A DNA stretch of 64,000 nt from positions 164,003 to 228,002 of the forward strand of contig CAWJEP010000005.1 in the NCBI GenBank assembly GCA_963841935.1. The letters run 5' to 3'. This document shows, piece after piece, positions 1-49,932 of this stretch. The position numbers and the translations under genes were made by a program. The DNA is from an uncultured bacterium. GTDB lineage: Bacteria; Patescibacteriota; Minisyncoccia; Phycocordibacterales; UBA6065. The notes under the pieces are model-generated. The model was not told the origin of the DNA. It worked only from the letters and a program-made list of their open reading frames with translations, and searched no databases. Position 1 is the first letter of the stretch. Each line of letters opens with the position of its first letter.

Positions 1-1047
1 GACACAATTCTCATCTCCATTCTCATCGTCATCGCCGCAGTAATTCTTTTTTTCCAGATAAAAAATCGCAAGCCGGAAAAAGAGGAGAAACCGGACAAAG
101 CTTTGGATTTGCTGCTTCAGCAGATGAACGAGCTTTCTCGCACCGTCGACCGCAAAATGGGCGAGACGACGAAATCGATGAGTGATTCCATTCATAAGCA
201 ATTTTCCGAATCGGCGAAACTCATCCGCGATGTCACCGAAGGCCTGACCAAGCTCGACGAGACGAACAAGCAGGTCGTGTCTTTCGCCGACCAGCTTCAA
301 TCTCTCCAAGATATTTTTTCCAATCCGAAACAGCGCGGGGTGGTGGGGGAATATTATCTCGAAACGCTTTTGAAAAATGTCTTGCCGCCGGGGAGTTTCG
401 AAATGCAATACGCTTTCAAAGACGGAACGATCGTTGACGCCATTGTCAGAGTCCAGAAAAAAATTATTCCTATTGACTCAAAGTTTTCTTTCGAGAATTA
501 TCAGCGGCTCGTCGAAGAAAGAAATCCGACGGAAAAAGAACGCTTGGAAAAAGATTTCGTCAACGACTTGAAAAACAGAATCGTGGAGACCTCGAAATAC
601 ATCAAGCCCGCCGAAGGCACGATGGATTTCGCTTTTATGTTCATTCCGCACGAGGCGATTTATTACGATTTGCTCACGAACAAAGTGGGCGCGCTCACTG
701 GAGAAAACGAGAACCTTATTCAGAGGGCCGCCGGAAAATACAAAGTCATAATTGTCTCGCCGACATCGTTCCTCGCTTATCTTCAGACGGTTCTCCAGGG
801 ACTTAAAGCCCTTCAAATCGAAGAATCGGCGAAAGAAATCCGCGGCAATGTGGAAACGCTTCAAAAACATTTAATGGGCTACGCCGAGTACCAAGAAAAA
901 CTCGGAAACGCTCTCGGCACGACGGTGAATCATTTCAATGCCTCAAGCAAGCAGTTCCGCCTTATAAACAAAGACGTCATAAAAATCACCGAGAAAGGCA
1001 AGGAATACGAGCCGGACCTCATCGAAAAACCGGAAACGGAGGAATAG
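1..1047 (+). CDS. rmuC: DNA recombination protein RmuC (5' partial; N-terminal TM helix runs off window start)
   Basis: Reading frame is open from nt 1. The hydrophobic N-terminus followed by a coiled-coil and a conserved C-terminal domain matches RmuC architecture. Confidence 0.7.
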   Translation, partial: DTILISILIVIAAVILFFQIKNRKPEKEEKPDKALDLLLQQMNELSRTVDRKMGETTKSMSDSIHKQFSESAKLIRDVTEGLTKLDETNKQVVSFADQLQSLQDIFSNPKQRGVVGEYYLETLLKNVLPPGSFEMQYAFKDGTIVDAIVRVQKKIIPIDSKFSFENYQRLVEERNPTEKERLEKDFVNDLKNRIVETSKYIKPAEGTMDFAFMFIPHEAIYYDLLTNKVGALTGENENLIQRAAGKYKVIIVSPTSFLAYLQTVLQGLKALQIEESAKEIRGNVETLQKHLMGYAEYQEKLGNALGTTVNHFNASSKQFRLINKDVIKITEKGKEYEPDLIEKPETEE

Positions 1048-1074: not shown

Positions 1075-1446
1075 ATGGCTATTCCTATGGCAACAAAGAA
1101 AACAACTAAAACCGCGACAAATCCGAACGAAATTGCCGTCATTATGACGGGAGGAAAGCAATACAAAGTTTCGCAGGGAAGCGTCCTTAAGATTGAAAAA
1201 ATTCTCGGCGACCACAAAGAAGGCGGCAAACTCGTATTTGACGAAGTTCTAATGACGGATGATGGCACAAAGACAACCGTCGGCACGCCGAAAGTCGCCG
1301 GAGCGAAAGTCGAAGGCGTCATAAAAGAAATCGGACGAAATGCCAAAGTCACGGTCATTCACTACAAGAACAAAAGCCGTTATTACAAGAAAGCCGGTCA
1401 CAGACAGCCATTTTTCAAAGTAGAAATCACCAACATCAAAGCATAA
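1075..1446 (+). CDS. rplU: 50S ribosomal protein L21 (bL21)
   Basis: The 'TGGKQYKVSQGSVLKIEKI' motif matches the bL21 family. Start chosen at the ATG at 1075 inside the longer TTG ORF. Confidence 0.85.
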   Translation: MAIPMATKKTTKTATNPNEIAVIMTGGKQYKVSQGSVLKIEKILGDHKEGGKLVFDEVLMTDDGTKTTVGTPKVAGAKVEGVIKEIGRNAKVTVIHYKNKSRYYKKAGHRQPFFKVEITNIKA

Positions 1447-1519
1447 GAAAAGCGGCGGGTATTTTCGAGCGCGTAAGTCGGAGCGAAGCGCACAAGCGAG
1501 AAAATACCCGCCGCTTTTC
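1447..1519. repeat. Palindromic repeat element copy A (19-bp perfect inverted arms flanking the conserved 35-nt core); also serves as the rplU terminator-like hairpin
   Basis: Arms gaaaagcggcgggtatttt / aaaatacccgccgcttttc flank the core cgagcgcgtaagtcggagcgaagcgcacaagcgag. The same core recurs at 8307, 31790, 46992 and (reverse complemented) 49872. Confidence 0.85.
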
Positions 1520-1579
1520 TATGGCGATTTTTGTTATTCACAGGCTATCAACATTGGCGATGGCTTATTAAGGTTTATA

Positions 1580-2851: not shown

Positions 2852-3304
2852 ATGAAGATCTTTATCGGAAGCGACCACGCGGGATTTGAACTTAAGAAAA
2901 CTTTGCTTGAGTATTTAAACGACCTCGGACACGATGTAAGCGACATGGGGGCGAAGAAACTTGACCCTCTCGACGATTATCCGGATTTTATAATTCCGGT
3001 CGCAAAAGAAGTCTCCCACGCGCCAGACAAATTCCGCGGCATCGTCATCGGCGGCTCGGGACAAGGCGAAGCGATGTGCGCCAACAAGGTCTACGGCGTG
3101 CGCGCGGCGGTCTATTACGGAGGGAACTCCGACATCGTGAAGCTATCGCGCGAGCACAATGACGCAAATGTTTTGTCGCTTGGCGCGCGCTTCGTCGGCC
3201 CCGACGAAGCGCGCGCCGCCGTTCGGCTCTGGCTCGATACACCTTTTTCCGGCGACGAGCGACACAAACGGCGAATTTTGAAAATGTATTCGATAAAAAA
3301 ATAA
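2852..3304 (+). CDS. rpiB: Ribose-5-phosphate isomerase B (RpiB/LacAB family)
   Basis: '[15 protein letters not shown]' N-terminus; 150 aa. Confidence 0.85.
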
Positions 3305-4911: not shown

Positions 4912-5910
4912 ATGCTTAATCCTTCACAAAAACTCAATACGAAAATGTTTGACGCTGATGTCGAGCAAATGCCGATACGAAAAGGTTTCGGAGAAGGACT
5001 CGTCGTCGCCAGCGAAGAAAACAAAAATGTCGTTGGGCTTTGCGCCGACCTGACCGAGTCCACGCAGATGTATCTTTTCAAAAATAAATTCCCTGAAAGA
5101 TTCGTCGAGGTCGGCGTCGCCGAACAAAACCTTGCCACAGTCGCGTCAGGCATGGCGGCGATGGGCAAGATTCCTTTCATAAGTTCTTACGGTACTTTTT
5201 CTCCCGGAAGAAATTGGGAACAAATCAGGACGACTATTTGTTTCAACAATCAGCCGGTCAAAATTGCCGGCAACCACACCGGCGTCTCCGTCGGTCCCGA
5301 CGGCGGCACGCATCAGGCGATTGAGGACATCGCCATCGCCCGCGTTTTGCCTCGTATGGTAGTAATTTCGCCTTGCGACGCTCTGGAAGCCAAGAAAGCC
5401 ACTATTGCCGCGGCAAAGACCAACACGCCCGTATACATTCGTCTCGCGCGCGAGAAAACCCCCGTGATGACGACAGACGCGACGCCGTTTGAAATAGGCA
5501 AAGCGCAAGTTTTCTACGACCCGCCGGCGGGGAAGCCGGATGTCGCGATAATCGCCACAGGTGCACTTCTCTATAAAGCCCTCGTCGTTGCGCGCGAATT
5601 TCAAAAAGAAAATATCGGCGTCCGCGTCATAAATCTTTCGACAATCAAACCGCTCGATGAAAAAACGATTTTAAGAGCGGCAAAAGACGCGAAAGCAATA
5701 GTTACCGTCGAAGAACATCAAATCGCCGGCGGTATGGGAAGCGCCGTCGCGGAGTTTCTCTCGGCAGTCTATCCTGTGCCGATGGAACGCATCGGCGTCA
5801 AAGACCAATTCGGCCAAAGCGGCACGCCGGAAGAACTCATCGAACATTACGGTATGGGTGTCACGCACATCAAAGAAGCGGTAAAGAAAGTTTTGAAGAG
5901 AAAAATCTAA
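4912..5910 (+). CDS. Transketolase, C-terminal (pyrimidine-binding/C-terminal domain) subunit
   Basis: 'FVEVGVAEQNLATVASGMA' transketolase pyrimidine-domain motif. The gene follows the N-terminal subunit directly. Confidence 0.85.
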   Translation: MLNPSQKLNTKMFDADVEQMPIRKGFGEGLVVASEENKNVVGLCADLTESTQMYLFKNKFPERFVEVGVAEQNLATVASGMAAMGKIPFISSYGTFSPGRNWEQIRTTICFNNQPVKIAGNHTGVSVGPDGGTHQAIEDIAIARVLPRMVVISPCDALEAKKATIAAAKTNTPVYIRLAREKTPVMTTDATPFEIGKAQVFYDPPAGKPDVAIIATGALLYKALVVAREFQKENIGVRVINLSTIKPLDEKTILRAAKDAKAIVTVEEHQIAGGMGSAVAEFLSAVYPVPMERIGVKDQFGQSGTPEELIEHYGMGVTHIKEAVKKVLKRKI

Positions 5911-6533
5911 GGAAGCGGTTCTTGTTTGCGGCCCGAGAGAGCGTCGGAAAGAGTTTCGCGGTCGATGTATTCGATTTCAGCGCCGGTAGAGAGTCCGCGA
6001 CCGAGAACGGAAACTTTTATTTCGTGTTTTTTGACCGACTCGCGGATTGCGTCTTCGATTGTGGCTCGTGTGTTATCGCCTTCGGGATTGAGGCTCGTGG
6101 CGATAATAATTTCTTTCAAATCCTTTCTGTCTTTATTTATGCGAGAAACCAATTCTTTCGTACGAAGCGGGCTTTGTTTTTTTGCGGAGAAAGCCGACGT
6201 GCCGCCGAGAATAAAATACAAACCTTTGTAGAGATTGGTATTTTCGATACTTTCAAAATCCACATCGCGCGGCAAAACCATCAGTAGGGAATGGTCGCGG
6301 CCGCCATCGGCGCAAATGCCGCAGGCATTTGCGCCGCCTTTGGCTTCAAAAAACCGAAAGCACACGGAGCATTGCCTGACATTTTCGTCCATAAACTCTA
6401 TTTCTTTGACGAAATCTTCGCGGAAAGTTTTGTTTTTATGCAAAAGAAAATAAACGAAGCGTTCGGCTTGGCGCGGGCCGATACCGGGAAATTCGCGGAA
6501 TATTTCTTTGAGCTTTTCGAGCGAGTCAGCCAT
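5907..6533 (-). CDS. recR: Recombination protein RecR
   Basis: The C4 zinc finger 'CSVCFRFFEAKGGANACGIC' and a Toprim domain match RecR. Start is the ATG at 6533 (MADSLEK). Confidence 0.85.
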   Translation of the reverse strand: MADSLEKLKEIFREFPGIGPRQAERFVYFLLHKNKTFREDFVKEIEFMDENVRQCSVCFRFFEAKGGANACGICADGGRDHSLLMVLPRDVDFESIENTNLYKGLYFILGGTSAFSAKKQSPLRTKELVSRINKDRKDLKEIIIATSLNPEGDNTRATIEDAIRESVKKHEIKVSVLGRGLSTGAEIEYIDRETLSDALSGRKQEPLP

Positions 6534-6534
6534 A

Positions 6535-7913
6535 TTAATTTTCCGCTTGCGCGAATTCTCCGAAATCGGCTTTCTCAATCGGCACGAAAGATGACTTGTC
6601 CTTATCGAAAGAGAGCTGAATCCTGCCGGTCGGGCCGTTCCTGTGTTTCTCAACGAGGATTTCGGTGGTGATGAAACTTTTTTCCCTGTTTTCTTCGCTG
6701 TATTTGTCTTCCTGATGAATAAACATCACGATGTCCGCGTCTTGCTCGATTGAGCCAGAGTCGCGCAAGTCGGAGAGGCGAGGGCGACCGCCGCGGCTTT
6801 CCACGGCGCGGGAAAGCTCGAGAGCGCGAGCACTGGGATATCGAATTCTTTCGCCATTTGTTTGAGCGAGCGGGAAATTTCGGTGATTTGCTGGACCAAG
6901 TTGTCGTTTTTGATGTTCGTCGGCATCATAAGCTGGAGATAGTCGACGATGACGAGGCCGAGCTTGCCTTCACGCTGTAGGCGACGAGCGACGGCGCGCA
7001 TTTTGACGATGCTGTTACTGCTTTGGTCGTCGATGTAAATCGGAGCGGTGGAAAGAGCCGCCAAGCCGTCACGAACAATGCTTAAATCTTTATCGATGTT
7101 TAATTTTCCGGTACGAAGTTTGAAAGCGTTGACGCGCGCTTCGGCGGCGAGCATCCTGTCGACAAGCTGAGGCACGGCCATTTCAAGAGAGAAAATACAA
7201 ACCGGAATCTTGCCGCGCACAGCGACATTTCTCGCGATATCGAGAGCGAGGGATGTTTTACCCATCGAGGGGCGAGCGGCAAGAATAATGAGGTCGGAAG
7301 GCTGAAGGCCGGAGAGGAGGTTGTCTATGTCTCTAAATCCTGTCGGGATGCCGCGCAGAGCGCCTTCGTTGTTGTGAATGTGGTCGAGGCGCTCCCAAGC
7401 TTCGTCAAGAGCGTCTTTGAGATTTATGATCCTGTTTTGCGGCACCATTGCCGAGACGTCGTGAATGATTTTGTTGGCCGCGTCCACTATTTCGTCCACG
7501 TTGCTATCTTCGTCCACGCCGACGTCTTTTATCATTTCTCCGGCTTCTATCATTCGCCTCATCAAAGCTTTCTTGTGGACGATGTCGGCGTAATTTTTTA
7601 TGTTCGAAGTGGACGGCACAGCGGAGACGAGCTCGCCGAGATACGCCGAACCGCCGACGGATTCGAGTTGGCCTTTTTCCGAAAGAAGGTTTGAAAGAGA
7701 GAGTAAATCTATCGGCTCGTTTTTGTTCGAGAGTTCGAAAATAGAATCCCAAATCGTCTTGTGTTTGTTCGAATAGAAAACGTCACCCGTGACAATGTCC
7801 ACGACATCGTGAATAGTGTCGGGTTTGATGATGATAGCGCCAAGCAAAGCGCGCTCGGCTTCGAGAGATTGCGGCGGTGCTTTGAGCAATGCGTCTTTGC
7901 TACGGTCTGCCAT
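6535..7913 (-). CDS. dnaB: Replicative DNA helicase DnaB, interrupted by an apparent 1-nt frameshift near 6810-6818
   Basis: The N-terminal domain and Walker A/B lie in ORF 6726-7913. The C-terminus ('SRGGRPRLSDLRDSGSIEQDADIV') continues in another frame in ORF 6535-6804. The expected 'ALSxLSRAVE' junction is missing one nucleotide. Confidence 0.8.
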
Positions 7914-7983: not shown

Positions 7984-9384
7984 TTAAGATTTTGCTCTGA
8001 CGGATGAGTCTTTTTCCGAATCCAAGACTTCATAGCCGAGTTTTTCGATTTGAATACGGATTTCGTCGGATTTGGCGAAGTCTTTGGCCGCGCGCGCTTT
8101 AGCGCGCGCGGCGAGAAGCTCCGATATTTCTTTCGGAATTTCCGCTTGAGGCGCGAAAAGTTCCAATCCCAATATTTCGTCGGCTGATTTTATGAAAGCA
8201 AGTTTTTCTTTTGCGTCAGCGTCGCTCTCCAACATATTCCAAACCTCAGCGAGAAGTTTCGGCGTATCTAAATCATCCGCGGCGAAGGAAATCGCCAATG
8301 GCGCGCGCGTAGTCTTAGCGGAGTCCTCGGAGCGCACAAGCGCGCCATTGGCGATTTCCGCAGCCTTCGCCTTTAATCTTTTGAACGCATTCGCCGCATT
8401 GTCGAGAGCTTCGAAACTAAAATTGAGCGGCGCGGAATACCTCGCGGTCAAAAGAAAATATCGGTAGGCGAGAGGAGAGTAGCCTTTTTCGACAAGCGTT
8501 GAAAGCGTCAGGAAATTGCCGGCGGATTTCGCCATTTTTCCGCTGTCGATGGTGACGAATGCGTTGTGGATCCAGTAATGTGCGAATTTTTTTCCCGTGG
8601 CGTGTTCCGATTGGGCGATTTCGTTGTTGTGATGGACGGGAATATGGTCGATGCCTCCGGTGTGAATGTCGAAAGTCTCGCCGAGAAATTTCATCGACAT
8701 CGCCGAACATTCTATGTGCCAGCCCGGGTAGCCGAGGCCGAGAGGACTTTTGAAACCCATATGGCCGTCTTTGGAAAATTTCCACAAGGCGAAATCGCGT
8801 GGATTTTTCTTTCCGCCGTCAGCCATTCGCGTCTGACTTTCGCCCAAAGGCGTCAGTCCGCCGAGCCTGCCGTAATCGGAAATTTTTGAAGTGTCAAAAT
8901 ATATTCCGTCGTCCGCGCGGTAAGTCAGACCTTTTTTATCCAACTCTTTGATAAGTTTTAGGTCGGCTTTTAGATAACGGCTCGCGCGCGGGAACTTCGT
9001 GCCTTTGGTTTCGATATTCAAAAGTTTCAAATCATTTTTGAAAGCCGATTCGTATTTGTCGGCAAGTTTCTTTAGTCCATCGAGCGTCATCGGCAAATTT
9101 TCGCGTTTGAGACCTTTGACCATTTTGTCGTCGCCCGAATCGGCGTCGGACGATAGGTGTCCGATGTCGGTAATGTTTATGACTTGTTTTATTTTGTATC
9201 CCGCCGCTTCAAATGTCCGACGCAAAGTATCGGCAAAGACATACGAACGCAAGTTTCCGATATGAGCGAAATCATAGACGGTTGGGCCGCAGTGATACAT
9301 TCCGACCTTGCCATTTTTTATCGGGACGAAAACATCTTTCTTTCCCGAAAGGGAATTTTCCAGTTTTATTTCCTGATATTTCAT
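7984..9384 (-). CDS. cysS: Cysteinyl-tRNA synthetase (carries an in-frame palindromic-element insertion)
   Basis: HIGH-region 'CGPTVYDFAHIGN' and 'KMAKSAGN' motifs. The ORF runs continuously through the repeat copy at 8291-8356. Confidence 0.9.
   Translation of the reverse strand: MKYQEIKLENSLSGKKDVFVPIKNGKVGMYHCGPTVYDFAHIGNLRSYVFADTLRRTFEAAGYKIKQVINITDIGHLSSDADSGDDKMVKGLKRENLPMTLDGLKKLADKYESAFKNDLKLLNIETKGTKFPRASRYLKADLKLIKELDKKGLTYRADDGIYFDTSKISDYGRLGGLTPLGESQTRMADGGKKNPRDFALWKFSKDGHMGFKSPLGLGYPGWHIECSAMSMKFLGETFDIHTGGIDHIPVHHNNEIAQSEHATGKKFAHYWIHNAFVTIDSGKMAKSAGNFLTLSTLVEKGYSPLAYRYFLLTARYSAPLNFSFEALDNAANAFKRLKAKAAEIANGALVRSEDSAKTTRAPLAISFAADDLDTPKLLAEVWNMLESDADAKEKLAFIKSADEILGLELFAPQAEIPKEISELLAARAKARAAKDFAKSDEIRIQIEKLGYEVLDSEKDSSVRAKS
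8291..8356. repeat. Palindromic repeat element copy B, inserted in frame within cysS (16-bp perfect inverted arms atcgccaatggcgcgc/gcgcgccattggcgat)
   Basis: Core gcgtagtcttagcggagtcctcggagcgcacaagc belongs to the same family as 1466-1500. It translates as ...EIANGALVRSEDSAKTTRAPLAIS... in CysRS. Confidence 0.8.
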
Positions 9385-19678: not shown

Positions 19679-20395
19679 TTATTGTTCGGAAACTGCGACT
19701 TTTTCCGTCTCCATTACAATATCATCAAAATGCCTTTCTTGAACGACGGAAATTATTCCCTGCTTCACGAGCTCGAGCATAGCGAGAAAGCTAATGATGA
19801 CATTGACCTTTCCCTCTTTGTCTTTGGCGAATTCCTTGAAACTCATTTTAAGTCCCGTTGTGATTCGGTTCGTGAGATTGGAAATCATTTCCTCGAGCGA
19901 AATGACTTTGTCCACGACGGCTTTCGGCAAGAATTCTTTTTTCGGCAAATTGGCAAGCACCGCGCCGATACTTTCAAAGAGGTTGGAAAGCGTCATTGAA
20001 TTGTCCGGCGAGAAAACCGGCTCGATTTTCCTTTCTGCCCGGGCGAAAAGAAAATTTTTGCCGAAAATCTTCTGCAAAGCGGCGGCTCGCTCGCGATACA
20101 TTTTGTATAGAGCGAGCCGCCGCTCGAGATCCGCTATATTGCCTTTTTCGTCTTCCGAGAGTTCCAAATTCGGCAAGAGAGATTTCGATTTGATGAGAAG
20201 CAGGGTCGAGGCGATGAGCACGAATTGCGCCGATTCCGAAAGCGGAAAATCCCCCACCGTTCTCACATACGCGACATAATCGTCGGCGACTTTGGAAAGC
20301 GATATGTCGTTTATGAAAAGTTTCCTCTTCTCGATGAGGTCGAGCAAAAGTTCCAGCGGTCCTTCGAATTTCTCGTGTTTCAGCGCAAAAGGCAT
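19679..20395 (-). CDS. scpA: Segregation and condensation protein A
   Basis: 'FEGPLELLLDLIEKRKLFINDISLSKVADDYV' matches ScpA. Confidence 0.85.
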   Translation of the reverse strand: MPFALKHEKFEGPLELLLDLIEKRKLFINDISLSKVADDYVAYVRTVGDFPLSESAQFVLIASTLLLIKSKSLLPNLELSEDEKGNIADLERRLALYKMYRERAAALQKIFGKNFLFARAERKIEPVFSPDNSMTLSNLFESIGAVLANLPKKEFLPKAVVDKVISLEEMISNLTNRITTGLKMSFKEFAKDKEGKVNVIISFLAMLELVKQGIISVVQERHFDDIVMETEKVAVSEQ

Positions 20396-21801: not shown

Positions 21802-22758
21802 TTATCTTACGCCAATGGCTTTTCGCACGATTTCCATTTTCTTCTCGGCCGCTTCGCGAGCCCTATCGGCACCCTTTGCTAAAATTTTCAAAACTTTCTT
21901 CGGGTCGCGCGCGATTTTCTCCCTGCGCTCGCGAAGCGGCCGGATAAATGCGATGAGGTCGGCAATCAAAGTTTCTTTCAAATCCTTGTACTTGCCTTTC
22001 TTCTCCGCGTATAGTTTTTCAAGCTCGGCTTTCGAGCGGAAGAGTGAGTGAATGGCATAGACATTTTCCGGTCTTTCGCCGGAAGAATCTGTGACAATTG
22101 TCATAACAAATTTCCTTATTTCTTCATCTGTCGCGAAAAGTCCGAGGTCATTGCCGTAGCTTTTAGACATCTTCCGGCCGTCATTTCCGGGAACAACCGC
22201 GACGGTCGAGAGAATCAAATCGGTCGGCAATTTGAAAACTTCGCTGTGCGAAAGTTCTGTTGAATTTTTGCGCCGTGTCGCGCGCGTATTCGACATGTTG
22301 TTTTTGGTCCTGCCCCACCGGCACGACATCGGTGTCGTAAAGCAAAATATCCGCCGCCATAAGCATCGGGTAATTGAAAGTGCCGACAGAGATTTCCTTG
22401 TCTTTGGCTTCGGCGTTTTTGTAAGCGTGCGCGCGCATTAGATATGGCATCGTCGTGATGGTGTCGAATATCCAAGCAAGCTCGGTATGCGTCGAGAACG
22501 TCGGATTGTTTGAAGATTACAGACTTCTTCGGGTCGAGGCCGATGGCGAGATAGTCGATGGCGAGGTTCAAGATTAAGTTGCGCATTTCCGTCGCCGTTT
22601 TGAATGAGATTTAGTCCGTGATAATCGGCAATGAAAAAGTAGCAGTCGTATTTGTCCTGCAAGTCGACGAATTGCTTCATCGCGCCGAAATAATTGCCTA
22701 TATGCGGCCGTCCCGTCGGTTTGACGCCCGAAAGAAGGATTTTCTTAGCCATCGCCAA
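21802..22758 (-). pseudogene. trpS: Tryptophanyl-tRNA synthetase, fragmented into 4 reading frames by at least 3 short indels (about 22255, 22490, 22590)
   Basis: ORF pieces 22438-22758 (HIGH 'TGRPHIGNY'), 22215-22586, 22181-22450 and 21802-22329 ('KMSKS') read in order as one TrpRS of about 319 aa. Removing a single C near 22490 restores 'VLEHTELAWIFD'. Confidence 0.75.
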
Positions 22759-29683: not shown

Positions 29684-29816
29684 TTAATTTTTGACCTTTT
29701 TCCGTGCCGATGCCTGTGCGAGAGCACGCATATTTTTCTGCTGAAAAATTGCTCTGCTCGGCTCGTCAGCCTGCGCAAGGCTTCGCCCAAGCACCGGCAC
29801 GGAAGCCGGTTTTAAT

Positions 29817-31718
29817 TTACTTTTTTTCCTCCTTGAAGTCGGCATCTCTCACATTCCCCTCTTCCGGCGGTTTGTTCTGATTCGGCGCGGACTGCTGATT
29901 CTTCATCATCGCCTCGCCAATCTTTTGCATAGCGAGCGACAAGTCCTCGGTCGCCTTTTTGATGGCGGCGATATCCGTGCCGCCTGCCTCACCGGCAGGC
30001 AGGTCTTTTACTTTTTTGACCTCGGCGATTTTCGCTTCGACATCGGTCTTCACTTCTGCCGGAACTTTATCTGCGCCATCTCTTATCGCCTTCTCCGCCG
30101 TGTAGATAGCTTGGTCGGCAAGATTGCGAGTTTCGATTTCGTCTTTCTTGGCTTGGTCTTCGCTCGCGTGCGCTTCGGCGTCGCGTTTCATTTTCTCGAT
30201 GTCGTCTTTCGAAAGTCCCGAGCTTCCCTGGATTTTAATCGACTGCTCTTTGCCCGAAGATTTTTCTTTGGCCTTGACCGCTAGAATGCCATTTGCGTCG
30301 ATGTCAAAAGTCACTTCGACTTGAGGCATACCGCGAGGAGCCGGCGGTATGCCATCGAGGACGAACCTGCCAAGTGATTTGTTGTCTCGAGCGAGAGCTC
30401 TTTCGCCTTGAACGACGTTTATCTCAACGGACGGCTGATTGTCGGCCGCCGTGGAAAATATTTGCGAACGCGAAGCCGGAATCGTTGTGTTTTTGTCGAT
30501 GAGATGCGTCGCGACACCGCCCATCGTCTCAATGCCCAGCGTTAGCGGAATGACATCAAGAAGCAAAACGTCTTTGACGTCGCCTTTGAGAATGCCGCCC
30601 TGGATAGCCGCGCCGAGCGCCACGACTTCGTCGGGATTGACCGACTGATTGGCTTTTTTCTTGAAGTAATCCTCGACTATCTTCACCATCGCCGGCATTC
30701 TGGTCTGTCCGCCGACTAGAATGACTTCGTTGATCTCAGGAAGTTTGAAGGGAGATGCGTCCATCGCGCGTTTCGTAATCATCATCGCGCGGTCAAGGAA
30801 TTCTTGGGTAAGTTCTTCGAGTTTCGCGCGAGTGATTTTCTGGACGAGGTGAAGAGGACCGTTTACGCCGCTTGATATAAACGGAATATTGATTTCAGTT
30901 TCGATTGCCGTCGAGAGTTCGATTTTGGCTTTCTCCGCCGCGTCGTCGAGACGCTGTTTGGCGAGAACGTCTTTTCGCAAATCGACGCCGTTTTCTTTCT
31001 GAAATTGGTCCGCGAGCCAGTTGATGATTTTCTGGTCGATGTCTTTACCGCCGAGATGGGCGTCGCCGTCGGTTGATTTCACTTCGATGACATCGTCGCC
31101 GACTTCCAAGACGGAAATGTCGAATGTACCGCCGCCGAAATCGAAGACGACTATTTTTTCGTTTTTCTTTTTGTTGAATCCATAAGCGAGGGCCGCCGCC
31201 GTGGGCTCGTTTATAATGCGCATCACTTCGAGTCCGGCGATTTTTCCGGCGTCTTTGGTCGCTTGTCGCTGGCTGTCGTTGAAGTATGCGGGAACAGTGA
31301 TAACCGCTTGGGTCACCGGCTCGCCGAGGCGCGCTTCTGCGTCTTGTTTCATTTTCTGGAGAATCATCGCGGAAATTTCTTCCGGTCTTTTCCATTCGCC
31401 GTTTAGATTGACCTCAATGCCGCCGTTTGCCGCTTTGCGGCATTCGAAAGGCACCGAAGCGATGTCTTTTTGCGCCGCCGGCTCATCCCAAGAGTGGCCG
31501 ATAAATCTTTTGATTTGATAAATCGTGTTTTTGGGATTGGTCACCGACTGCCTCTTGGCCGTGACGCCGACGAGCCGTTCGCCGGTTTTCGAGACGGCGA
31601 CGATTGATGGCGTGGTGCGCATGCCTTCGCTGTTTTCGAGGATTTTCGGCTCACCACCTTCGACAACCGCTACCGCCGAGTTGGTTGTTCCTAGGTCTAT
31701 ACCGATTATTTTTGACAT
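29817..31718 (-). CDS. dnaK: Chaperone DnaK (Hsp70)
   Basis: '[12 protein letters not shown]', 'DLGGGTFD' and a C-terminal lid domain. Confidence 0.95.
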
Positions 31719-31768: not shown

Positions 31769-31843
31769 CACAGGATGTGCGATATTTTTGAGCGCGTAAG
31801 TCTTAGCGAAGCGCACAAGCGAAAAAATATCGCACATCCTGCG
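31769..31843. repeat. Palindromic repeat element copy C in the grpE-dnaK spacer (arms gcacaggatgtgcgatattttt / aaaaatatcgcacatcctgcg)
   Basis: Core gagcgcgtaagtcttagcgaagcgcacaagcga matches copies A, D and E. Confidence 0.85.
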
Positions 31844-41104: not shown

Positions 41105-41364
41105 ACGGCTTTTTCCTTTTTTAGAATCTCCGCTTTACTTTTTCCACGCAAACCGTTGTAACCGCCGACTTTCCCGTCGCTTCTGATGACGCGATGGCAA
41201 GGAATATTTTTGTCGGAATTTTTGCTCAAAATCATGCCGACGGAGCGCGCCGCGCCGGACTTACCGGCGCGGCGCGCCACTTCTTTGTACGTCAAAACTT
41301 TTCCTTTTGGAATTAAAGCGACTATTGCCAAAACTTTCTTGGAAAAATCAGAATAACGTTTCAT
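41101..41364 (-). CDS. MGMT-family DNA-binding protein (methylated-DNA-protein-cysteine methyltransferase C-terminal domain only)
   Basis: 'IPCHRVI' active-site motif. The 87-aa protein lacks the N-terminal domain. Confidence 0.75.
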   Translation of the reverse strand: MKRYSDFSKKVLAIVALIPKGKVLTYKEVARRAGKSGAARSVGMILSKNSDKNIPCHRVIRSDGKVGGYNGLRGKSKAEILKKEKAV

Positions 41365-42190
41365 TTAAAGGTTTTTCCTCGCTATTTTTTTTCGGTTTGT
41401 TGAGCTTTGCAAGCCTTGAAACTTTTGTCGACGGCTTTGCCGGTGCGACTGCGTCGAGAACCATTTTTCTGTAAGCGCAAAACTCGCATTCACGCGACGG
41501 CTCAGGCAATTCTTTCGAATCCAAGCATTTTTTGATTTCAAAAATCGTTTTCTCCACCCACGCGTCGCTACCTTTGTGGGCGATGAGGGTAATGTCAAAT
41601 TCCAACTTGCCTTCGAAAGCTTCTTTGTCTTTTTTGCCGTTGACATAGACGAAATATCCCGTGTCGGAAACTTTGAAACCGTTGCGGCGCAAAAGCCATT
41701 GATAGATTTCCATTTGGCGCTTGTATTGCGCGTCCCAACCGGAATCCGCGAGCGATTCCACTGCGGTATCTTTTGAAGTGGCTTTGTAATCAACGACGAT
41801 AAACTCGCCGTCTTTGTTGACCCAAATATCGTCTATGGCGCCGGAAATAGTCAGCCCCGTCGGCTTATGGAAAAATTCTATGCCTTTGAAATTCTCCCGC
41901 CAGACATTTAAAAGTTCGTGCGATAGCGGCACGGCGTCGACGCCGTATTTTTTCATCAAAGGGTGTGCCGTACCTGCCGCGCGATGAATGTCGAATTCTT
42001 TTTTCAAAAGAGCGTCGACGGCTAGGTTTAATGTGAATGCCGGCGGACGCGGACGAGCGACGCCCAATTTGTTGTCCAAATAGAAACATCTCCGACATTC
42101 GGTAAAAAGGTCTACCTTGGAGCGCGACAAACGAAACTTCGAACCGCCGTAATTCCAGTCCTTGCTTCTGGCTTCTCCCCTGATTTTCAT
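41348..42190 (-). CDS. PD-(D/E)xK nuclease-superfamily protein, Cas4/RecB-like, with four Cys (CxxC ... CxxC)
   Basis: 'IVVDYKATSK...EIYQWLL' core with N-terminal 'CRRC' and C-terminal 'CEFC'. No CRISPR array is nearby. Confidence 0.55.
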   Translation of the reverse strand: MKIRGEARSKDWNYGGSKFRLSRSKVDLFTECRRCFYLDNKLGVARPRPPAFTLNLAVDALLKKEFDIHRAAGTAHPLMKKYGVDAVPLSHELLNVWRENFKGIEFFHKPTGLTISGAIDDIWVNKDGEFIVVDYKATSKDTAVESLADSGWDAQYKRQMEIYQWLLRRNGFKVSDTGYFVYVNGKKDKEAFEGKLEFDITLIAHKGSDAWVEKTIFEIKKCLDSKELPEPSRECEFCAYRKMVLDAVAPAKPSTKVSRLAKLNKPKKNSEEKPLNETLF

Positions 42191-43023
42191 GCGACGCCGC
42201 AAATTAATTCCGCGTCCTCACCAATGATTTTCGCCTCGTCTTCGGAAATGCCCAGAGAAACGAGTGAATCTTTTTTCGCCAATATGTCTTTACACAATAC
42301 CAAGCCGTTCGATATGAGAATGCGGCGATTGCTTTCTGAAAGATTCGGGATGGATGTCACCGGATGTAGGCCAGCGTCTTCAATCATATGCTCGAGGTTG
42401 CCCTGCGCAGGATAGTTCCAGCCGACGAGGCGCAGTCCCTCGCAAGCGGCGTAGGCGATGGCTTTGTCGGTAAATTTAGTGTTGGTCACGAGAATACCTT
42501 GCGTCAATTTTCTGATTTTTCCGCCGAAATCAAATTGCGAGAGCGATAAGTCGTCGGTGCGGGCTTTGACGTAAAGCGCCACCTTCAAATCTGATTTTAT
42601 TCCTATTTCGTTGTGGAATTTCGCCTCAACCATAATGAGCTCTTCGCCTTTCCAAGCGACGACGTCGACTTCATGCTCGACGCATTTGCCGCGAACGATT
42701 TGATCTGTCACCGCTTCGTAGCCACGAGCGCGGAAAAGGTCGGCGACGAATTTTTCAAAAGGATAACCCGCCGGACCTAAATCCAGGATGGCCCGGCGCA
42801 AAGAATATTTATGCGCCGCCGGACGGGAATCCCTAGACAGAAGGTCAAAGGCATGAGTGTAGATTTCCGAAGTGGTCATGCCTTCTTTGAGTTCGCTCTC
42901 CACGTGGTCGGCGATTTTTTTTGTCATTTCTCTGTCGGCGCCGGTGCGAATCAAGGAGGATTCCAGTTTTTTGCGATTAAAAGTTTCTTTGGTGCCGTCG
43001 GCTTTGACGATTTCTATACTCAT
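42187..43023 (-). CDS. ATP-cone domain fused to Mrr-like restriction-endonuclease domain
   Basis: The N-terminal 'IEIVKADGTKETFNRKKLESSLIRTGAD' has ATP-cone character. 'VDVVAWKGEELIMVEAKF' is the (D/E)xK core of the Mrr/NucS-like fold. Confidence 0.55.
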   Translation of the reverse strand: MSIEIVKADGTKETFNRKKLESSLIRTGADREMTKKIADHVESELKEGMTTSEIYTHAFDLLSRDSRPAAHKYSLRRAILDLGPAGYPFEKFVADLFRARGYEAVTDQIVRGKCVEHEVDVVAWKGEELIMVEAKFHNEIGIKSDLKVALYVKARTDDLSLSQFDFGGKIRKLTQGILVTNTKFTDKAIAYAACEGLRLVGWNYPAQGNLEHMIEDAGLHPVTSIPNLSESNRRILISNGLVLCKDILAKKDSLVSLGISEDEAKIIGEDAELICGVA

Positions 43024-46507: not shown

Positions 46508-49393
46508 CTAGTTTGGAACAATAAAATTTATTATTTTGTTTTTCACGTAAATTATTTTCGACGGTGTTTTTCCGGAGAGCCATTTCTCTAATTCCGACGC
46601 GGCAAAAGCGACTGCTTTTGCCGCGTCTTCGTCGGCATCCGCGGGCACCTCAATCACCGCGCGAACTTTGCCGTTTACTTGTACGGCAATATTTACTTTG
46701 GCGTCTTTGATAAACGCTTCATCCCACTTAGGCCAATCGGAAAGATGTATGGACTTTTTGTTTCCAAGCGAGCGCCATAATTCTTCGCTTATGTGTGGAG
46801 CGAAAGGCGCGAGAAGCTTCAAATAGCTCTCAAAATCGGCGCGAGCTATTGTCGGCACCTTGTCAAAAGCGTTTTGCAAAATCATAAGCGAACTTATCGC
46901 CGTGTTGAAACGCAAATTGGCGATGTCTTCGGTAACTTTCTTGATTGTTTTGTGTAAAAGCGTGTTTGTCGAAGAAAAAACAGCCTCTGGCGAGCGCGTA
47001 GTCTTAGCGGAGTCGGCGGAGCGCACAAGCGAGCCAGAGGCTGTTTTTTCGGAGACTTTCCACACGCGTTCGATGAACCGCCGCGAGCCAATCATACTGT
47101 CGGTGGACCATGCTATGGCTTGATCGAAAGGTCCCATAAACATTTCGTAAACGCGCAAAGTGTCGGCGCCGTATGTCGCGACTATGTCGTCGGGATTTAC
47201 GACATTGCCGAAACGTTTGGACATTTTTCTGCCGTCTTCGCCCATTATGAGTCCGACCGACTGCAATTTTTTAAACGGCTCGATTGTCGAGACAACGCCA
47301 ATGTCGTAAAGAAATTTGTGCCAAAAACGCGCGTATATGAGATGGCGTGTGGCGTGCTCGGCGCCGCCCACATAAAAGTCCACGCTGTTCCAATATTTTT
47401 CTTTTTTCGGAGAAACTAAAACCTTGGAGTCTTTCGGGTCCATATATCGCAAGTAATACCAAGAGCTCCCTGCCCATTGCGGCATCGTATTCGTCTCTCG
47501 TTTCATTCCTTTGAAATTGACCCATTTAGAAATCTCAGCCAAAGGCGACTCCCCCGTTCCCGTCGGTTCGTAATATTTCACTTTCGGCAATACCACCGGC
47601 AAATCTTTTTCCGAGACCGGCACTATTTTATTTCCGTTATGAAGCACCGGGATCGGCTCACCCCAATAGCGCTGCCGTGAGAAAACCCAATCTTTCAATT
47701 TGTATTTCGTCACCCATTTTCCGCCGGCTTTTTCGATGGCGTTCCTATCGGCAAACGGTTCGTCCTTTACGGGCAACTTGAACTTTTCCGCGAACGCCGC
47801 GTCTCTCTCGTCGTGTTTCGGCACTCCCATCACGGCTCCCGTGCCGTAATCGGCAAGGACATAGTCAGCAATCCAGACCGGCACCTCTTCCCCATTCACT
47901 GGATTTACCGCCTTGATTCCTTTCAATTCAACGCCGGTTTTTTCTTTCTTTGCGTCCGTGCGCTCAATTTCCGTTTTGATTCTCGCGGCGGCGACATATT
48001 TCACGACTTCTTTTTCGTTTTTCACTTCATGCAAAAGTTTTTCCACGAGCGGATGCTCCGGAGAAAGCACGACATACGTCACGCCGAAAAGCGTGTCTGG
48101 ACGAGTAGTGAAAACTTTTATTTTTTCCGTTTGATTTTTTATGGCGAAATCGATTTCCGCGCCTTCGCTTCGGCCAATCCAATTTCTCTGCGCCTCTTTT
48201 ATGGATTCCGGCCAATCAAGAAGCGGCTTCACAATATGGCGTGGCGCGCCGTCCATTACCAAATCCCAGCCGAGTTTCGAACCTTCGGCCGTCATTGCGT
48301 CACGAACTTTTTCCTCGGGAAGCCAAGTGACTTCGTGTTTGGCTTGTTCGTCAGCTACGACAGGAGCTTGTTCGCCGTCTTTTAGTTTGAAATAAAAAGA
48401 AGTGAAATGTCCGACGCGGTTTTCGTCTTTCGGCGGATGGAAAAATGTCGAGTGGTATTGACCGGCGCTTCTTTTCACGAGCGTCAGGTTTTTAAATCCC
48501 GTCTCTTCGAATATTTCCGCTCGCGCCGCTTCTTCCGGCGTCTGGCCTTTTTCGATGCCGCCAGTGATAGGAGTCGTCCAATCCACCTTTTTCCATTTGA
48601 GAACTATAAATTTCTTCTCCGACCAGTGTTCGACAAAAGCGCATATGGCGTTTCTCGGAACAAACGGCTTGTCCAATCTCACTTTGCCCGGAACATCGCT
48701 ATTCATATGGGTGATTCCAAATTCGCCATTCGGCAATGTCTCAAAAATGTCGCCGTTTGGCAAAACATTGGTGTCCAAGTCTTTCAAAAGTCTGTCGGCG
48801 TAATCGGTGATTTTCAAAACCCACTGGCGCATCGGTTTCTTCTCGACCGGCGTGCCGCAGCGCTCGCAGCGACCGTCTTCGACGTCTTCGTTCGCGAGGC
48901 CGGTCTTACACGACGGACACCAATTTATCGGCTCGTATGATTCGTAAGCCAAGCCTTTTTCCAAAAGTTTGAGAAAAATCCATTGCGTCCATTTGTAATA
49001 TTTCGGGTCGGTCGTGTTGATTTCCCTACTCCAATCATAATCAAAACCAATGATTTCCAGCTGTTTTTTGTACCTTGCGACATTTTTCGCCACGGCCACG
49101 ACCGGATTGGTCTTGGTCAAAATGGCGTAATTTTCCGCCGGCAAGCCGAAAGCGTCGAAACCCATTGGATGTAAGACGTTGTGCCCCTGCATCCTTTTCA
49201 TTCGGGAGACGATGTCGGTCGCGATGTAGCCCTTCGGATGGCCGACATGAAGACCTTCGCCCGAAGGATACGGAAACATATCGAGAACATAAAACTTGGG
49301 CTTGGGAGAATCATCCTTGGTCGCGTATATTTTCTTTTTCGCCCACCCCTTCTGCCACTTTTTTTCTATTTTCTTATGGTCGTATTGTTTCAT
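46508..49393 (-). CDS. leuS: Leucyl-tRNA synthetase carrying (i) an inserted NUDIX hydrolase domain and (ii) an in-frame palindromic-element insertion
   Basis: 'HVGHPKGY' HIGH motif, 'KMSKRFGN' and editing/anticodon domains. A Nudix box 'GGIEKGQTPEEAARAEIFEETGF' sits between '...LKDLD' and 'WPESIKEAQRNWIGRSEG'. Start is the ATG at 49393. Confidence 0.9.
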   Translation of the reverse strand: MKQYDHKKIEKKWQKGWAKKKIYATKDDSPKPKFYVLDMFPYPSGEGLHVGHPKGYIATDIVSRMKRMQGHNVLHPMGFDAFGLPAENYAILTKTNPVVAVAKNVARYKKQLEIIGFDYDWSREINTTDPKYYKWTQWIFLKLLEKGLAYESYEPINWCPSCKTGLANEDVEDGRCERCGTPVEKKPMRQWVLKITDYADRLLKDLDTNVLPNGDIFETLPNGEFGITHMNSDVPGKVRLDKPFVPRNAICAFVEHWSEKKFIVLKWKKVDWTTPITGGIEKGQTPEEAARAEIFEETGFKNLTLVKRSAGQYHSTFFHPPKDENRVGHFTSFYFKLKDGEQAPVVADEQAKHEVTWLPEEKVRDAMTAEGSKLGWDLVMDGAPRHIVKPLLDWPESIKEAQRNWIGRSEGAEIDFAIKNQTEKIKVFTTRPDTLFGVTYVVLSPEHPLVEKLLHEVKNEKEVVKYVAAARIKTEIERTDAKKEKTGVELKGIKAVNPVNGEEVPVWIADYVLADYGTGAVMGVPKHDERDAAFAEKFKLPVKDEPFADRNAIEKAGGKWVTKYKLKDWVFSRQRYWGEPIPVLHNGNKIVPVSEKDLPVVLPKVKYYEPTGTGESPLAEISKWVNFKGMKRETNTMPQWAGSSWYYLRYMDPKDSKVLVSPKKEKYWNSVDFYVGGAEHATRHLIYARFWHKFLYDIGVVSTIEPFKKLQSVGLIMGEDGRKMSKRFGNVVNPDDIVATYGADTLRVYEMFMGPFDQAIAWSTDSMIGSRRFIERVWKVSEKTASGSLVRSADSAKTTRSPEAVFSSTNTLLHKTIKKVTEDIANLRFNTAISSLMILQNAFDKVPTIARADFESYLKLLAPFAPHISEELWRSLGNKKSIHLSDWPKWDEAFIKDAKVNIAVQVNGKVRAVIEVPADADEDAAKAVAFAASELEKWLSGKTPSKIIYVKNKIINFIVPN
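46974..47050. repeat. Palindromic repeat element copy D inserted in frame within leuS (arms aaaaaacagcctctgg / ccagaggctgtttttt)
   Basis: Core gagcgcgtagtcttagcggagtcggcggagcgcacaagcgag. It is translated as ...KTASGSLVRSADSAKTTRSPEAVFS... in LeuRS. Confidence 0.8.
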
Positions 49394-49823
49394 TTTTAAA
49401 TTTGCGCAGAGCGAGATATATGAGTGCGATGAGAGCAATGCCGAGAATGACGACTCTCATCCAGCCGTAAGCCGACGACCAATATCTGAAAGACGCTATG
49501 ACAAGCGTGAGTATTCCGGAGAACGAAAGCGATGTGGAAACCACGGCATTTGTTTTCAAAAAGAAACTTAGGACGATGAGAATGACTCCGACGGCGACGA
49601 GAGTCATAAAGACTTCCGCCTGATAATTATTTTCCGCGGCGGTGTAATTATTTGAGCAAATGACATCGTTGGATTGCGGCGTAATAACGTCCGTTTGCGG
49701 GCAGAAATCGTTATATTGTGGCTCTTGGTAAATAAGCGAAAGAGAATAATTTATGAACATATTGGCGACGATGACGATGCCAATGATGAGCGACCATTTG
49801 AGAAGTTTTGATTGCTTTTGCAT
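49374..49823 (-). CDS. Hypothetical membrane protein (3-4 TM)
   Basis: Hydrophobic helices. It overlaps the leuS start by about 20 nt. Confidence 0.5.
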   Translation of the reverse strand: MQKQSKLLKWSLIIGIVIVANMFINYSLSLIYQEPQYNDFCPQTDVITPQSNDVICSNNYTAAENNYQAEVFMTLVAVGVILIVLSFFLKTNAVVSTSLSFSGILTLVIASFRYWSSAYGWMRVVILGIALIALIYLALRKFKNETIRP

Positions 49824-49847: not shown

Positions 49848-49932
49848 AAAAATAAAAAACGCACGTATTTTCTCGCTTGTGCGCTTCGCTCCGACTTACG
49901 CGCTCGAAAAATACGTACGTTTTTTATTTTTT
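49848..49932. repeat. Palindromic repeat element copy E (core reverse-complemented relative to copies A-D; arms aaaaacgcacgtatttt / aaaatacgtacgttttt, one mismatch)
   Basis: ctcgcttgtgcgcttcgctccgacttacgcgctcg is the exact reverse complement of the core of copy A. Confidence 0.85.

Follow-up and report, generated by a model that had tools for sequence, protein, structure and literature searches.

The cysS gene carried by contig CAWJEP010000005.1 of an uncultured bacterium of the Patescibacteriota (assembly GCA_963841935.1) contains a perfect hairpin that is in all probability an in-frame copy of a family of mobile hairpin repeats. The analysis was centred on a stretch of 64,000 nucleotides of this contig (hereafter the window), to which the coordinates refer. 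The repeat family is restricted to one lineage; its hairpins are present or absent at given sites, their arms covary, their cores flip, and copies reside in frame in many housekeeping genes. We propose that these are lineage-specific, non-coding, short mobile hairpins, each consisting of a conserved asymmetric core and copy-specific inverted arms. Copies were scored with a covariance model (R1) built from 63 aligned copies, and the host gene and the parts of the element in it are the following.

7984..9384, minus strand: cysS, encoding cysteinyl-tRNA synthetase (CysRS), 466 aa, the host of the element and the sole long open reading frame (ORF) across the hairpin, with Pfam and PDB matches.
8287..8359, plus strand: hairpin element of 73 nt, with the core in + orientation (antisense to cysS); R1 62.4 bits, E=5e-14; encodes CysRS residues 343-366.
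8287..8306, plus strand: left arm GGAAATCGCCAATGGCGCGC, 20 nt; its complement is the 3' (downstream) arm on the coding strand and encodes (R)APLAIS.
8340..8359, plus strand: right arm GCGCGCCATTGGCGATTTCC, 20 nt; its complement is the 5' (upstream) arm on the coding strand and encodes (A)EIANGA.
8303..8343, plus strand: core of the cysS copy, a 41-nt "B" type GCGCGCGTAGTCTTAGCGGAGTCCTCGGAGCGCACAAGCGC, aligned with 62 other copies; encodes the loop LVRSEDSAKTTR.

The ORF contains the Pfam domains tRNA-synt_1e (E=1.5e-87) and CysS_C, and the nearest PDB relatives of its product are the CysRS structures 3sp1, 8qhp and 1li5. The two arms of the inverted repeat are 100% complementary and lie 33 nt apart, the outer 4 nt on each side of the core being absorbed into the perfect stem. 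In a preliminary description of this region, an element of 66 nt with arms of 16 nt had been proposed. The 16-mer ATCGCCAATGGCGCGC was found at 8291-8306 of the plus strand as described, whereas its partner occupies 8340-8355 and not 8341-8356, and both lengths had been underestimated, the perfect arms measuring 20 nt and the whole element 73 nt. As had been recognised there, the 466-aa ORF passes through the perfect inverted repeat in frame and without a stop codon, and another frame of the core does contain a TAA (coding strand: GCTAAGAC). Only the third base of codon 342 belongs to the element, which ends with codon 366; the peptide EIANGALVRSEDSAKTTRAPLAIS corresponds to residues 343-366. 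Both orientations of this copy give an open frame, and the 33-nt spacer is a multiple of three. A perfect inverted repeat with arms of at least 14 nt within 100 nt was obtained in 0 of 40 first-order Markov simulations of the 64-kb window; the real window holds several perfect inverted repeats of the 14- or 16-nt-arm class. The folding energy of the cysS element is about -51 to -54 kcal/mol on either strand (z of about -6.4 against shuffles). Independent JGI, ENA and NCBI assemblies showed the element at the same cysS site.

The core shared by the family is asymmetric and 32-41 nt long. It reads GAGCGCGTA(A)GTC…GCGCACAAGCGA, in its fuller form GAGCGCGTA(A)GTC[GG/TT]AGCG..AAGCGCACAAGCGA, and some cores include a GTAG motif in their interior (GCGTAGTC). 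Together with the copy-specific paired arms of 13-30 nt, the elements reach ~65-95 nt. Two size classes of core were distinguished: A, of 32-33 nt, and B, of 41 nt, which differs from A by an internal duplication of 9 nt. Class B includes both the cysS and the leuS copy, and the cysS core is closest in sequence to that of leuS. Exactly five copies were found in the window with R1 (62-86 bits), the rest being generic hairpins of at most 23 bits. In addition to the cysS copy, these are the following.

46974..47050, plus strand: in-frame copy in leuS (46508-49438, minus strand), with 18-nt arms and a 41-nt core; R1 72.9 bits; encodes ...EKTASGSLVRSADSAKTTRSPEAVFS...
1446..1520, plus strand: intergenic copy with 21-nt arms and a 33-nt core; R1 86.1 bits.
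31771..31841, plus strand: intergenic copy with 19-nt arms and a 33-nt core, upstream of dnaK (29817-31718, minus strand); R1 81.3 bits.
49848..49931, minus strand: intergenic copy with the core in - orientation and 24-nt arms with one mismatch; R1 73.8 bits; an orthologous copy is present in L015.

The leuS insert is located in the linker preceding HKTIKKVTEDI, and in leuS orthologues the same site holds flipped or decayed versions of the element. The copy at 1446..1520 overlaps the stop codon of an L21-like ORF (1048-1446) by one base, the last of that codon. Partial matches were seen between arms of different copies: GCGGAAATCGCCAATGGC of the cysS arm is a near-match to the arm GCGGAAATCGCGAATGGT of the intergenic copy L090, and GCGGAAAT... 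was found again in the RNase R copy. In this the cysS arms are typical of the family. The core by itself gave no significant fold. No match to Rfam was obtained in the window at gathering thresholds, and a permissive search returned only far sub-threshold matches to microRNA-like hairpins.

The distribution of the family was determined by an exact-pattern scan for the core. In JGI metagenomes 94 matching stretches were obtained, reducing to ~93 distinct copies, and with the five copies of the window these establish that the segment is a repeat element, as the preliminary description had held and could not have known. One of the 185,579 species-representative genomes has the family, namely GCA_964476815.1, a fragmentary genome with 15 copies on 14 short contigs. 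Scanning of viral contigs for the core gave no match. Three further hits (L014, from a betaproteobacterial genome, L098 and L102) were rejected as chance pattern matches, with arms of 6-8 nt and unlike cores. The host CysRS and LeuRS have their nearest named relatives in the Parcubacteria/Paceibacterota.

Gene-internal copies were defined as those lying in a long ORF with at least 25 residues on each side of the copy. There are 36 of these (~40% of copies), and some of the ORFs, e.g. that of L010, look spurious. The host genes encode DNA polymerase I PolA (four orthologues), topoisomerase I TopA, RNase R, alanine racemase Alr, a ComEC-like protein, G6PD, TsaD, RsmE, ParB, a beta-CASP nuclease and an S-adenosylmethionine methyltransferase, plus CysRS and LeuRS. 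In TsaD, G6PD, RNase R and TopA the element is presumably a plain addition of ~20-25 residues, as judged by reading the sequences against those of E. coli or Thermotoga. Forward and reverse cores are equally frequent among the gene-internal copies (18 each). Five stop-free reading frames of the core are used, two of them forward (ERVSRSEAHKR / ERVVGAKRTSE; ARKSERSAQA / ARSLSEAHKRE) and three reverse (SLVRSADSAKTTR / SLVRFAKTTRS; ACALRSDLRA; RLCASLRLTR), and the forward frame bearing TAA/TAG was found in none of the 36. Many intergenic copies start at a stop codon or just behind it and combine an A-tract, a GC stem and a T-tract. The element of L069 sits where L101 (3776-3821) and L026 (2125-2170) have a canonical terminator-like hairpin, AAAACCGCC-TCGC-GGCGGTTTT; L067 has neither.

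Whole hairpins come and go between closely related sequences. Locus L078 is filled and L042 is empty, with flanks 97-100% identical, and the empty site contains neither arms nor core; L037 and L057 form a second filled/empty pair with the same pattern. Identical 23-nt arms were found at two unrelated loci, L078 and L026, which indicates that the arms travel with the core. In the 63-copy alignment 97.1% of the arm cells are paired (40-52% in slid controls), and 16 of 16 pairs have changed on both sides, a value reached by none of 500 shuffles; only the 4-7 arm nt adjoining the core show a few recurrent variants. The G1·A33 mismatch that the family has at the core ends is G-C in the window and T-A in the orthologous copy of L001, so that the same mismatch was resolved in opposite ways. 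Two compensated pairs differ between the leuS arms of the window and those of L115, and another two between L010 and L082.

Of 44 non-identical orthologous pairs, 19 have the core inverted relative to the flanks, although these pairs are not independent of one another in their phylogeny. In the flipped pairs the flanks are up to 92.6% identical and the cores up to 33/33; between L010 and L088, flanks 92.5% identical enclose a core that is identical at 33/33 positions and inverted. Three orientation/frame states occur in the polA linker among orthologues. Turnover at a site was also observed: the window copy at 1446 and L105 have ~95% identical flanks and wholly different arms or core subtypes. 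In L105 (reverse strand, downstream of rplU) an outer hairpin (AAAAAATCGCCGTTTTATTTTC...) encloses ACGCAAGCGCCCTCAC, a full inner element and TGCGGGTTCGGTCCTC. The outer sequences of this composite are also present in L064, which suggests that they belong to a further core family invaded by a cysS-type element.

Flanking DNA may be captured into the arms. The outer part of one arm of L040 is the native flank AGATTTTTCT of empty sites (window 5893-5919, L018 and L002), and the other arm is an inverted copy of it. Smaller captures, of 5 nt and 3 nt, were found in L074/L090 and in L109, and in L040, L074 and L109 the captured flank is limited to the outermost 3-10 nt. The new copy lies 5' of the forward core in 3 of 3 cases, a tiny sample confounded by core flipping. 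A general rule by which one arm is native and the other its inverted duplicate was rejected, because empty sites lack both arms and identical arms are found at different loci.

The window also contains GC-rich perfect palindromes without a core, several of them within coding sequence, at 8087-8112 (cysS), 3182-3217 (17-nt arms, 2-nt spacer), 20078-20124, 46595-46628 (leuS) and 41244-41278. The palindrome GCCGCGCGCGC-TTTA-GCGCGCGCGGC encodes the conserved AARAKARAA of CysRS. These core-less palindromes may be products of the same process that makes the arms symmetrical. At 29685-29819, directly downstream of dnaK, two imperfect inverted arms of 37 nt (73% complementary) enclose a spacer of 61 nt that starts with GAGCACGCA and ends with GCGCAAGGCT, a faint likeness to the core ends; the related contig L083 has a family copy there.

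The history of the cysS site was reconstructed from orthologues. All CysRS orthologues 75-86% identical to that of the window carry the element in the same loop, in either orientation, and none of those at 73% identity or less carries it. The core is of B type and in the window orientation in P0002 and P0004, of A type and in the window orientation in P0007, and of A type and in the opposite orientation (ERVV...) in P0003, P0005 and P0008. No element is present in P0006 (the 73% orthologue) or in P0009 and 110 more distant homologues, which have unrelated sequence there, with a conserved Y...F where the next helix starts. The insertion is confined to a lineage, as had been anticipated: the 73% orthologue and 111 more distant ones are without it. 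The opposing case named in the preliminary description, a homologous segment common to all orthologues, is contradicted by the unrelated sequence of the element-free CysRS, and therefore the interpretation as an insertion stands. The addition of ~22 aa claimed there was not borne out, since the element encodes 24 residues, yet the linker is only ~6 aa longer than in element-free relatives. The linker L337-D371 comprises 33-38 residues in the 7 element-bearing CysRS versus a median of 27 (range 23-38) in the 112 element-free ones. This small gain implies that ~18 native residues were replaced, among them the conserved Y...F with which the next helix begins. As judged from their likeness to arms of other copies, the cysS arms would have arrived with the element, and the ~18 native residues would have been lost at insertion or later. 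The earlier interpretation was thus largely right in describing an in-frame, lineage-restricted repeat element resembling the Rickettsia palindromic elements (RPEs), and wrong in its net "+22 aa".

To place the insert in the protein, an AlphaFold2 model of CysRS was built with 119 homologues (mean pLDDT, predicted local distance difference test score, of 89). The model shows a helix at 324-348, a loop at 349-360 (pLDDT below 50 at 350-359) and a helix at 361-369, followed by the DDLDTP helix. According to this prediction, and as read on the coding strand, the first helix would be completed by residues from the upstream arm and the second opened by residues from the downstream arm, with the core supplying a disordered tip between them. 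The surface-loop location suggested earlier agrees with the model, in which the insert is predicted to lie between two helices.

Several other genes of the window deserve mention. The dnaB gene (6535-7913) is split across frames, giving 395 + 89 aa versus 459 aa in relatives, and trpS (21802-22758) is likewise split, giving TrpRS of 106 + 175 aa with more shifts. Such breaks reflect either indel errors of the assembly or pseudogenes, and they call for caution in reading the window at the level of single bases. The element copy at 1446..1520 has a gene of the RmuC family (103-1047, plus strand) beside it; inversion at short inverted repeats is limited by RmuC in E. coli. A gene for a Cas4-like PD-(D/E)XK nuclease adjoins one for an ATP-cone/Mrr-like endonuclease (41348-42202 and 42187-43023, both on the minus strand).

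Taken as a copy of a mobile hairpin, the cysS element would have settled in the gene in the ancestor of a small clade of Patescibacteria. It would persist because it is in frame, free of stop codons and placed on the tip of the helix-loop-helix that lies between the catalytic part of the enzyme and its anticodon-binding part. Once translated, the arms would form the ends of the two helices and the core a disordered loop of ~12 residues, with ~18 native residues replaced and not a simple gain of 24. We infer that the element is selfish and not useful. Template switching during replication is reported to homogenise the arms of inverted repeats, to invert spacers, to create, extend and maintain stems, and to give apparent compensatory multinucleotide changes (PMC8604942, PMC8794818); it has been described in E. 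coli (PMC7202029). The covariation of the arms, the stem-restoring changes, the flips of the core and the capture of flanks all match these products, and hence template switching was taken as the maintenance process. With modest confidence, we consider that template switching between the arms during replication keeps the cysS hairpin perfect despite its coding role. A strand-specific hairpin in single-stranded form, as the intermediate from which new copies arise, is possible and rather doubtful.

A number of observations weigh against this explanation. No separated half-cores flanking a gene, as expected for an autonomous parent, were found in 630 kb of sequence. No transposase or reverse transcriptase was found either, ten further window ORFs whose function was not obvious giving only nucleases unrelated to transposition. 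A regular target-site duplication was absent from L078/L042 and L037/L057, which are few pairs. Translation of the insert would follow solely from the open frame. Core-less perfect palindromes are present in L074 and L038 at sites where orthologues have full elements, so the core could be a separate invader of existing hairpins. Insertion of the core alone into existing palindromes was not favoured, because whole hairpins come and go as units and a 3-nt direct repeat can explain the loss of a core. At orthologous loci, cores of the same type are 94-100% identical (30-33/33 or 39-41/41) with flanks that have diverged by 8-23%, and the arms have diverged more than the flanks. Such conservation of the core beyond the flanks is not expected of a purely selfish insert that decays neutrally. 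In addition, arm mismatches are strand-biased, with 40 G·T on the core-forward strand versus 5 A·C (32 versus 5 after collapsing related arms, p=7e-6), a bias not predicted by template switching alone. Core conservation and strand bias together point to a form in which one strand is single-stranded and the sequence of the core matters. This form could be a strand-specific transposition intermediate or a functional hairpin of RNA or single-stranded DNA, the latter being the main rival, or complement, to the selfish explanation.

That the hairpin is a functional single-stranded element (RNA or single-stranded DNA) kept by selection, with the core as a recognition site and arms that merely pair, is unlikely but merits serious consideration, and it is compatible with mobility. 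It might serve as a terminator or stability element, as a processing site or as a binding site for a host or element protein, in which case the copies in genes would be tolerated by-products. Near-identical cores at orthologous loci with diverged flanks, the covarying arms, and the tolerance of G·T but not A·C on the core-forward strand are all consistent with it, as are the many intergenic copies placed at or after a stop codon between an A-tract and a T-tract and the L069 copy that takes the place of the canonical terminator hairpin of L101 and L026. However, the even split of orientations in genes and the flips between orthologues make a fixed role in host transcripts unlikely, close relatives are polymorphic for presence or absence of the element, and neither an Rfam match nor a significant fold of the core alone was obtained. 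Selection on a hairpin in the host mRNA was rejected as a general cause, because the orientations are split 18/18 and the G·T bias tracks the core and not the gene.

A programmed switch, in which flipping of the core gives two alternative loop peptides in CysRS and other proteins, is very improbable. Related genomes do show both orientations at the sites in cysS, leuS and polA, and the window copy, with its spacer divisible by three, is open both ways. Nevertheless, the flips were seen between genomes and not within one population, no recombinase was found, and flipped orthologues also change the core subtype (32-nt versus 41-nt), which indicates turnover and not simple switching; inversion of the spacer is a passive outcome of template switching (PMC8604942).

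Hardly credible is the view that the element is excised from the mRNA or the protein as an intervening sequence, so that mature CysRS would lack its residues. A perfect 20-bp stem joining the flanks resembles the substrates of some RNA-processing enzymes, and with -51 kcal/mol in the mRNA sense it would strongly impede ribosomes. Against this, all the gene-internal copies of the long-ORF screen keep the frame open and avoid the stop frame, a constraint for which splicing would leave no need; exact excision of the hairpin would shift the frame, since 73 is not divisible by three; and neither a match to a ribozyme or intron family nor intein motifs in the 24-residue peptide were found. Finally, an ancestral CysRS sequence that is palindromic by chance, or an assembly artefact, has a negligible probability and is counted as already refuted by the repeat copies, the orthologue comparison and the simulations: although the total linker length is near that of other CysRS and the apparent frameshifts of dnaB and trpS show that the assembly is not flawless, the same core is found at ~90 unrelated loci, element-free orthologues have unrelated sequence at the site, the independent assemblies agree, and the chance expectation is essentially zero.

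A second, unrelated hairpin core, CGCTTTACCCTAAAGGGCTCCGAC[A/G]CGA, was found in the same LeuRS linker of other Paceibacteria lineages, where it encodes ..NSSRFTLKGSD.TKN... Two copies of it were delimited, both with perfect copy-specific arms of 21-22 nt.

L117, 81-150: second-family copy in the LeuRS gene of P0190.
L118, 548-619: second-family copy in the LeuRS gene of P0149.

P0208, P0203 and P0223 are similar to this second family at the protein level. The LeuRS of the window (46508-49438, minus strand) contains an internal NUDIX hydrolase domain (PF00293), as do nearly all of the best 120 Paceibacteria LeuRS homologues, many of which have further hydrolase or HAD domains and lengths of up to ~1,560 aa.

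The architecture of a core with variable arms seems to define a class and not a one-off. Tentatively, and with less than even confidence, we suggest that Patescibacteria harbour a previously undescribed class of mobile hairpins with a conserved asymmetric core that flips, whose arms are rebuilt by self-templated fold-back or template-switch synthesis and flank capture, which pass through a strand-specific single-strand intermediate, and in which several unrelated cores have repeatedly colonised identical permissive loops in essential proteins, aminoacyl-tRNA synthetases among them. If this is true, mobile hairpins would be a major source of lineage-specific protein insertions in Patescibacteria. 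The dozens of filled, empty, flipped and core-less alleles constitute a natural data set on the creation, upkeep, inversion and extension of hairpins in coding DNA, and they mark the loops in which proteins such as CysRS, LeuRS, PolA, TopA, RNase R and TsaD tolerate ~20-25 foreign residues. Inserts of this kind account for odd low-complexity segments met in the annotation of Patescibacteria proteins, and they are possible strain markers.

In the literature searched, which was of limited range, no description of such elements in Patescibacteria was found, and this is weak evidence of novelty. Comparison with inteins and introns gave no correspondence, the element being 73 nt long, encoding a 24-residue peptide without intein blocks and matching no intron or ribozyme model. 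MITE-type repeats (miniature inverted-repeat transposable elements, including ERIC, BOX and Correia) are also small, non-autonomous, hairpin-forming and dispersed, with occasional in-frame fusions (PMC10969869). MITEs have conserved terminal inverted repeats, target-site duplications and a parent insertion sequence (IS) with the same ends. The arms of the cysS-type element vary at 16/16 positions, L040, L074 and L109 show an inverted copy of 3-10 nt of flank instead of a fixed target duplication, and no parent IS emerged from the 630 kb searched for half-cores.

The strand-biased mismatches of the cysS-type family and the GTAG motif of some of its cores recall the repetitive extragenic palindromic (REP) sequences with their REP-associated tyrosine transposases (RAYT; Y1/HUH) and the IS200/IS605 elements, in which, too, the substrate is, or is inferred to be, one given strand of a short hairpin. 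REPs are extragenic, 20-40 bp long and have conserved stems with a GTAG/CGTC tag at the stem foot (PMC3733652). In the cysS-type element, by contrast, GTAG lies inside the loop, the stems are variable and ~40% of the copies are within ORFs. No RAYT/TnpA gene was found in the 64 kb of genome covered, and none of the ten further window ORFs scanned was Y1 or HUH.

Inverted repeats maintained by template switching and the palindromes in coding sequences of nematomorph mitochondria share with the cysS hairpin the perfect arms within genes, the compensatory-like double changes and the inversion of the spacer (PMC8604942, PMC8794818, PMC6649704). Those palindromes are local and confined to single loci, whereas the cysS-type hairpin has a conserved core and is dispersed as a family. 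Fungal mitochondria contain mobile GC-rich hairpin clusters, short palindromes that may lie in frame in a protein gene (var1); these make short AT target duplications and have no conserved asymmetric core.

The closest functional parallel is provided by the RPEs, short palindromic repeats of a lineage with reduced genomes that are found both between genes and in frame in unrelated housekeeping genes, and whose encoded peptide, like that of the cysS-type element, can be accommodated by the fold of the protein that carries it (PMC10969869, PMC1166351). There are 44 RPE insertions in genes of R. conorii, and R. felis has 728 copies, 85 of them in ORFs (PMC10969869, PMC1166351). The cysS-type family likewise has many dispersed copies (5 in 64 kb; 15 in GCA_964476815.1), both in frame and non-coding. 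The earlier designation as RPE-like is apt for a palindromic repeat present both between genes and in frame within them, and does not extend to membership of the RPE family. RPEs are ~100-150 bp long, have a consensus over their whole length and belong to the genus Rickettsia, whereas the cysS-type elements measure 65-95 nt, conserve only the core between variable arms and have a Patescibacterium as host. Set apart in this way by the descriptions of host, length and architecture, the cysS-type element is not an RPE; a relationship in sequence is not expected, and the likeness is best regarded as one of analogy. It would extend to the candidate phyla radiation the phenomenon of selfish DNA translated within essential genes, best known from Rickettsia, with a different architecture in which a conserved loop is borne on freely covarying stems.

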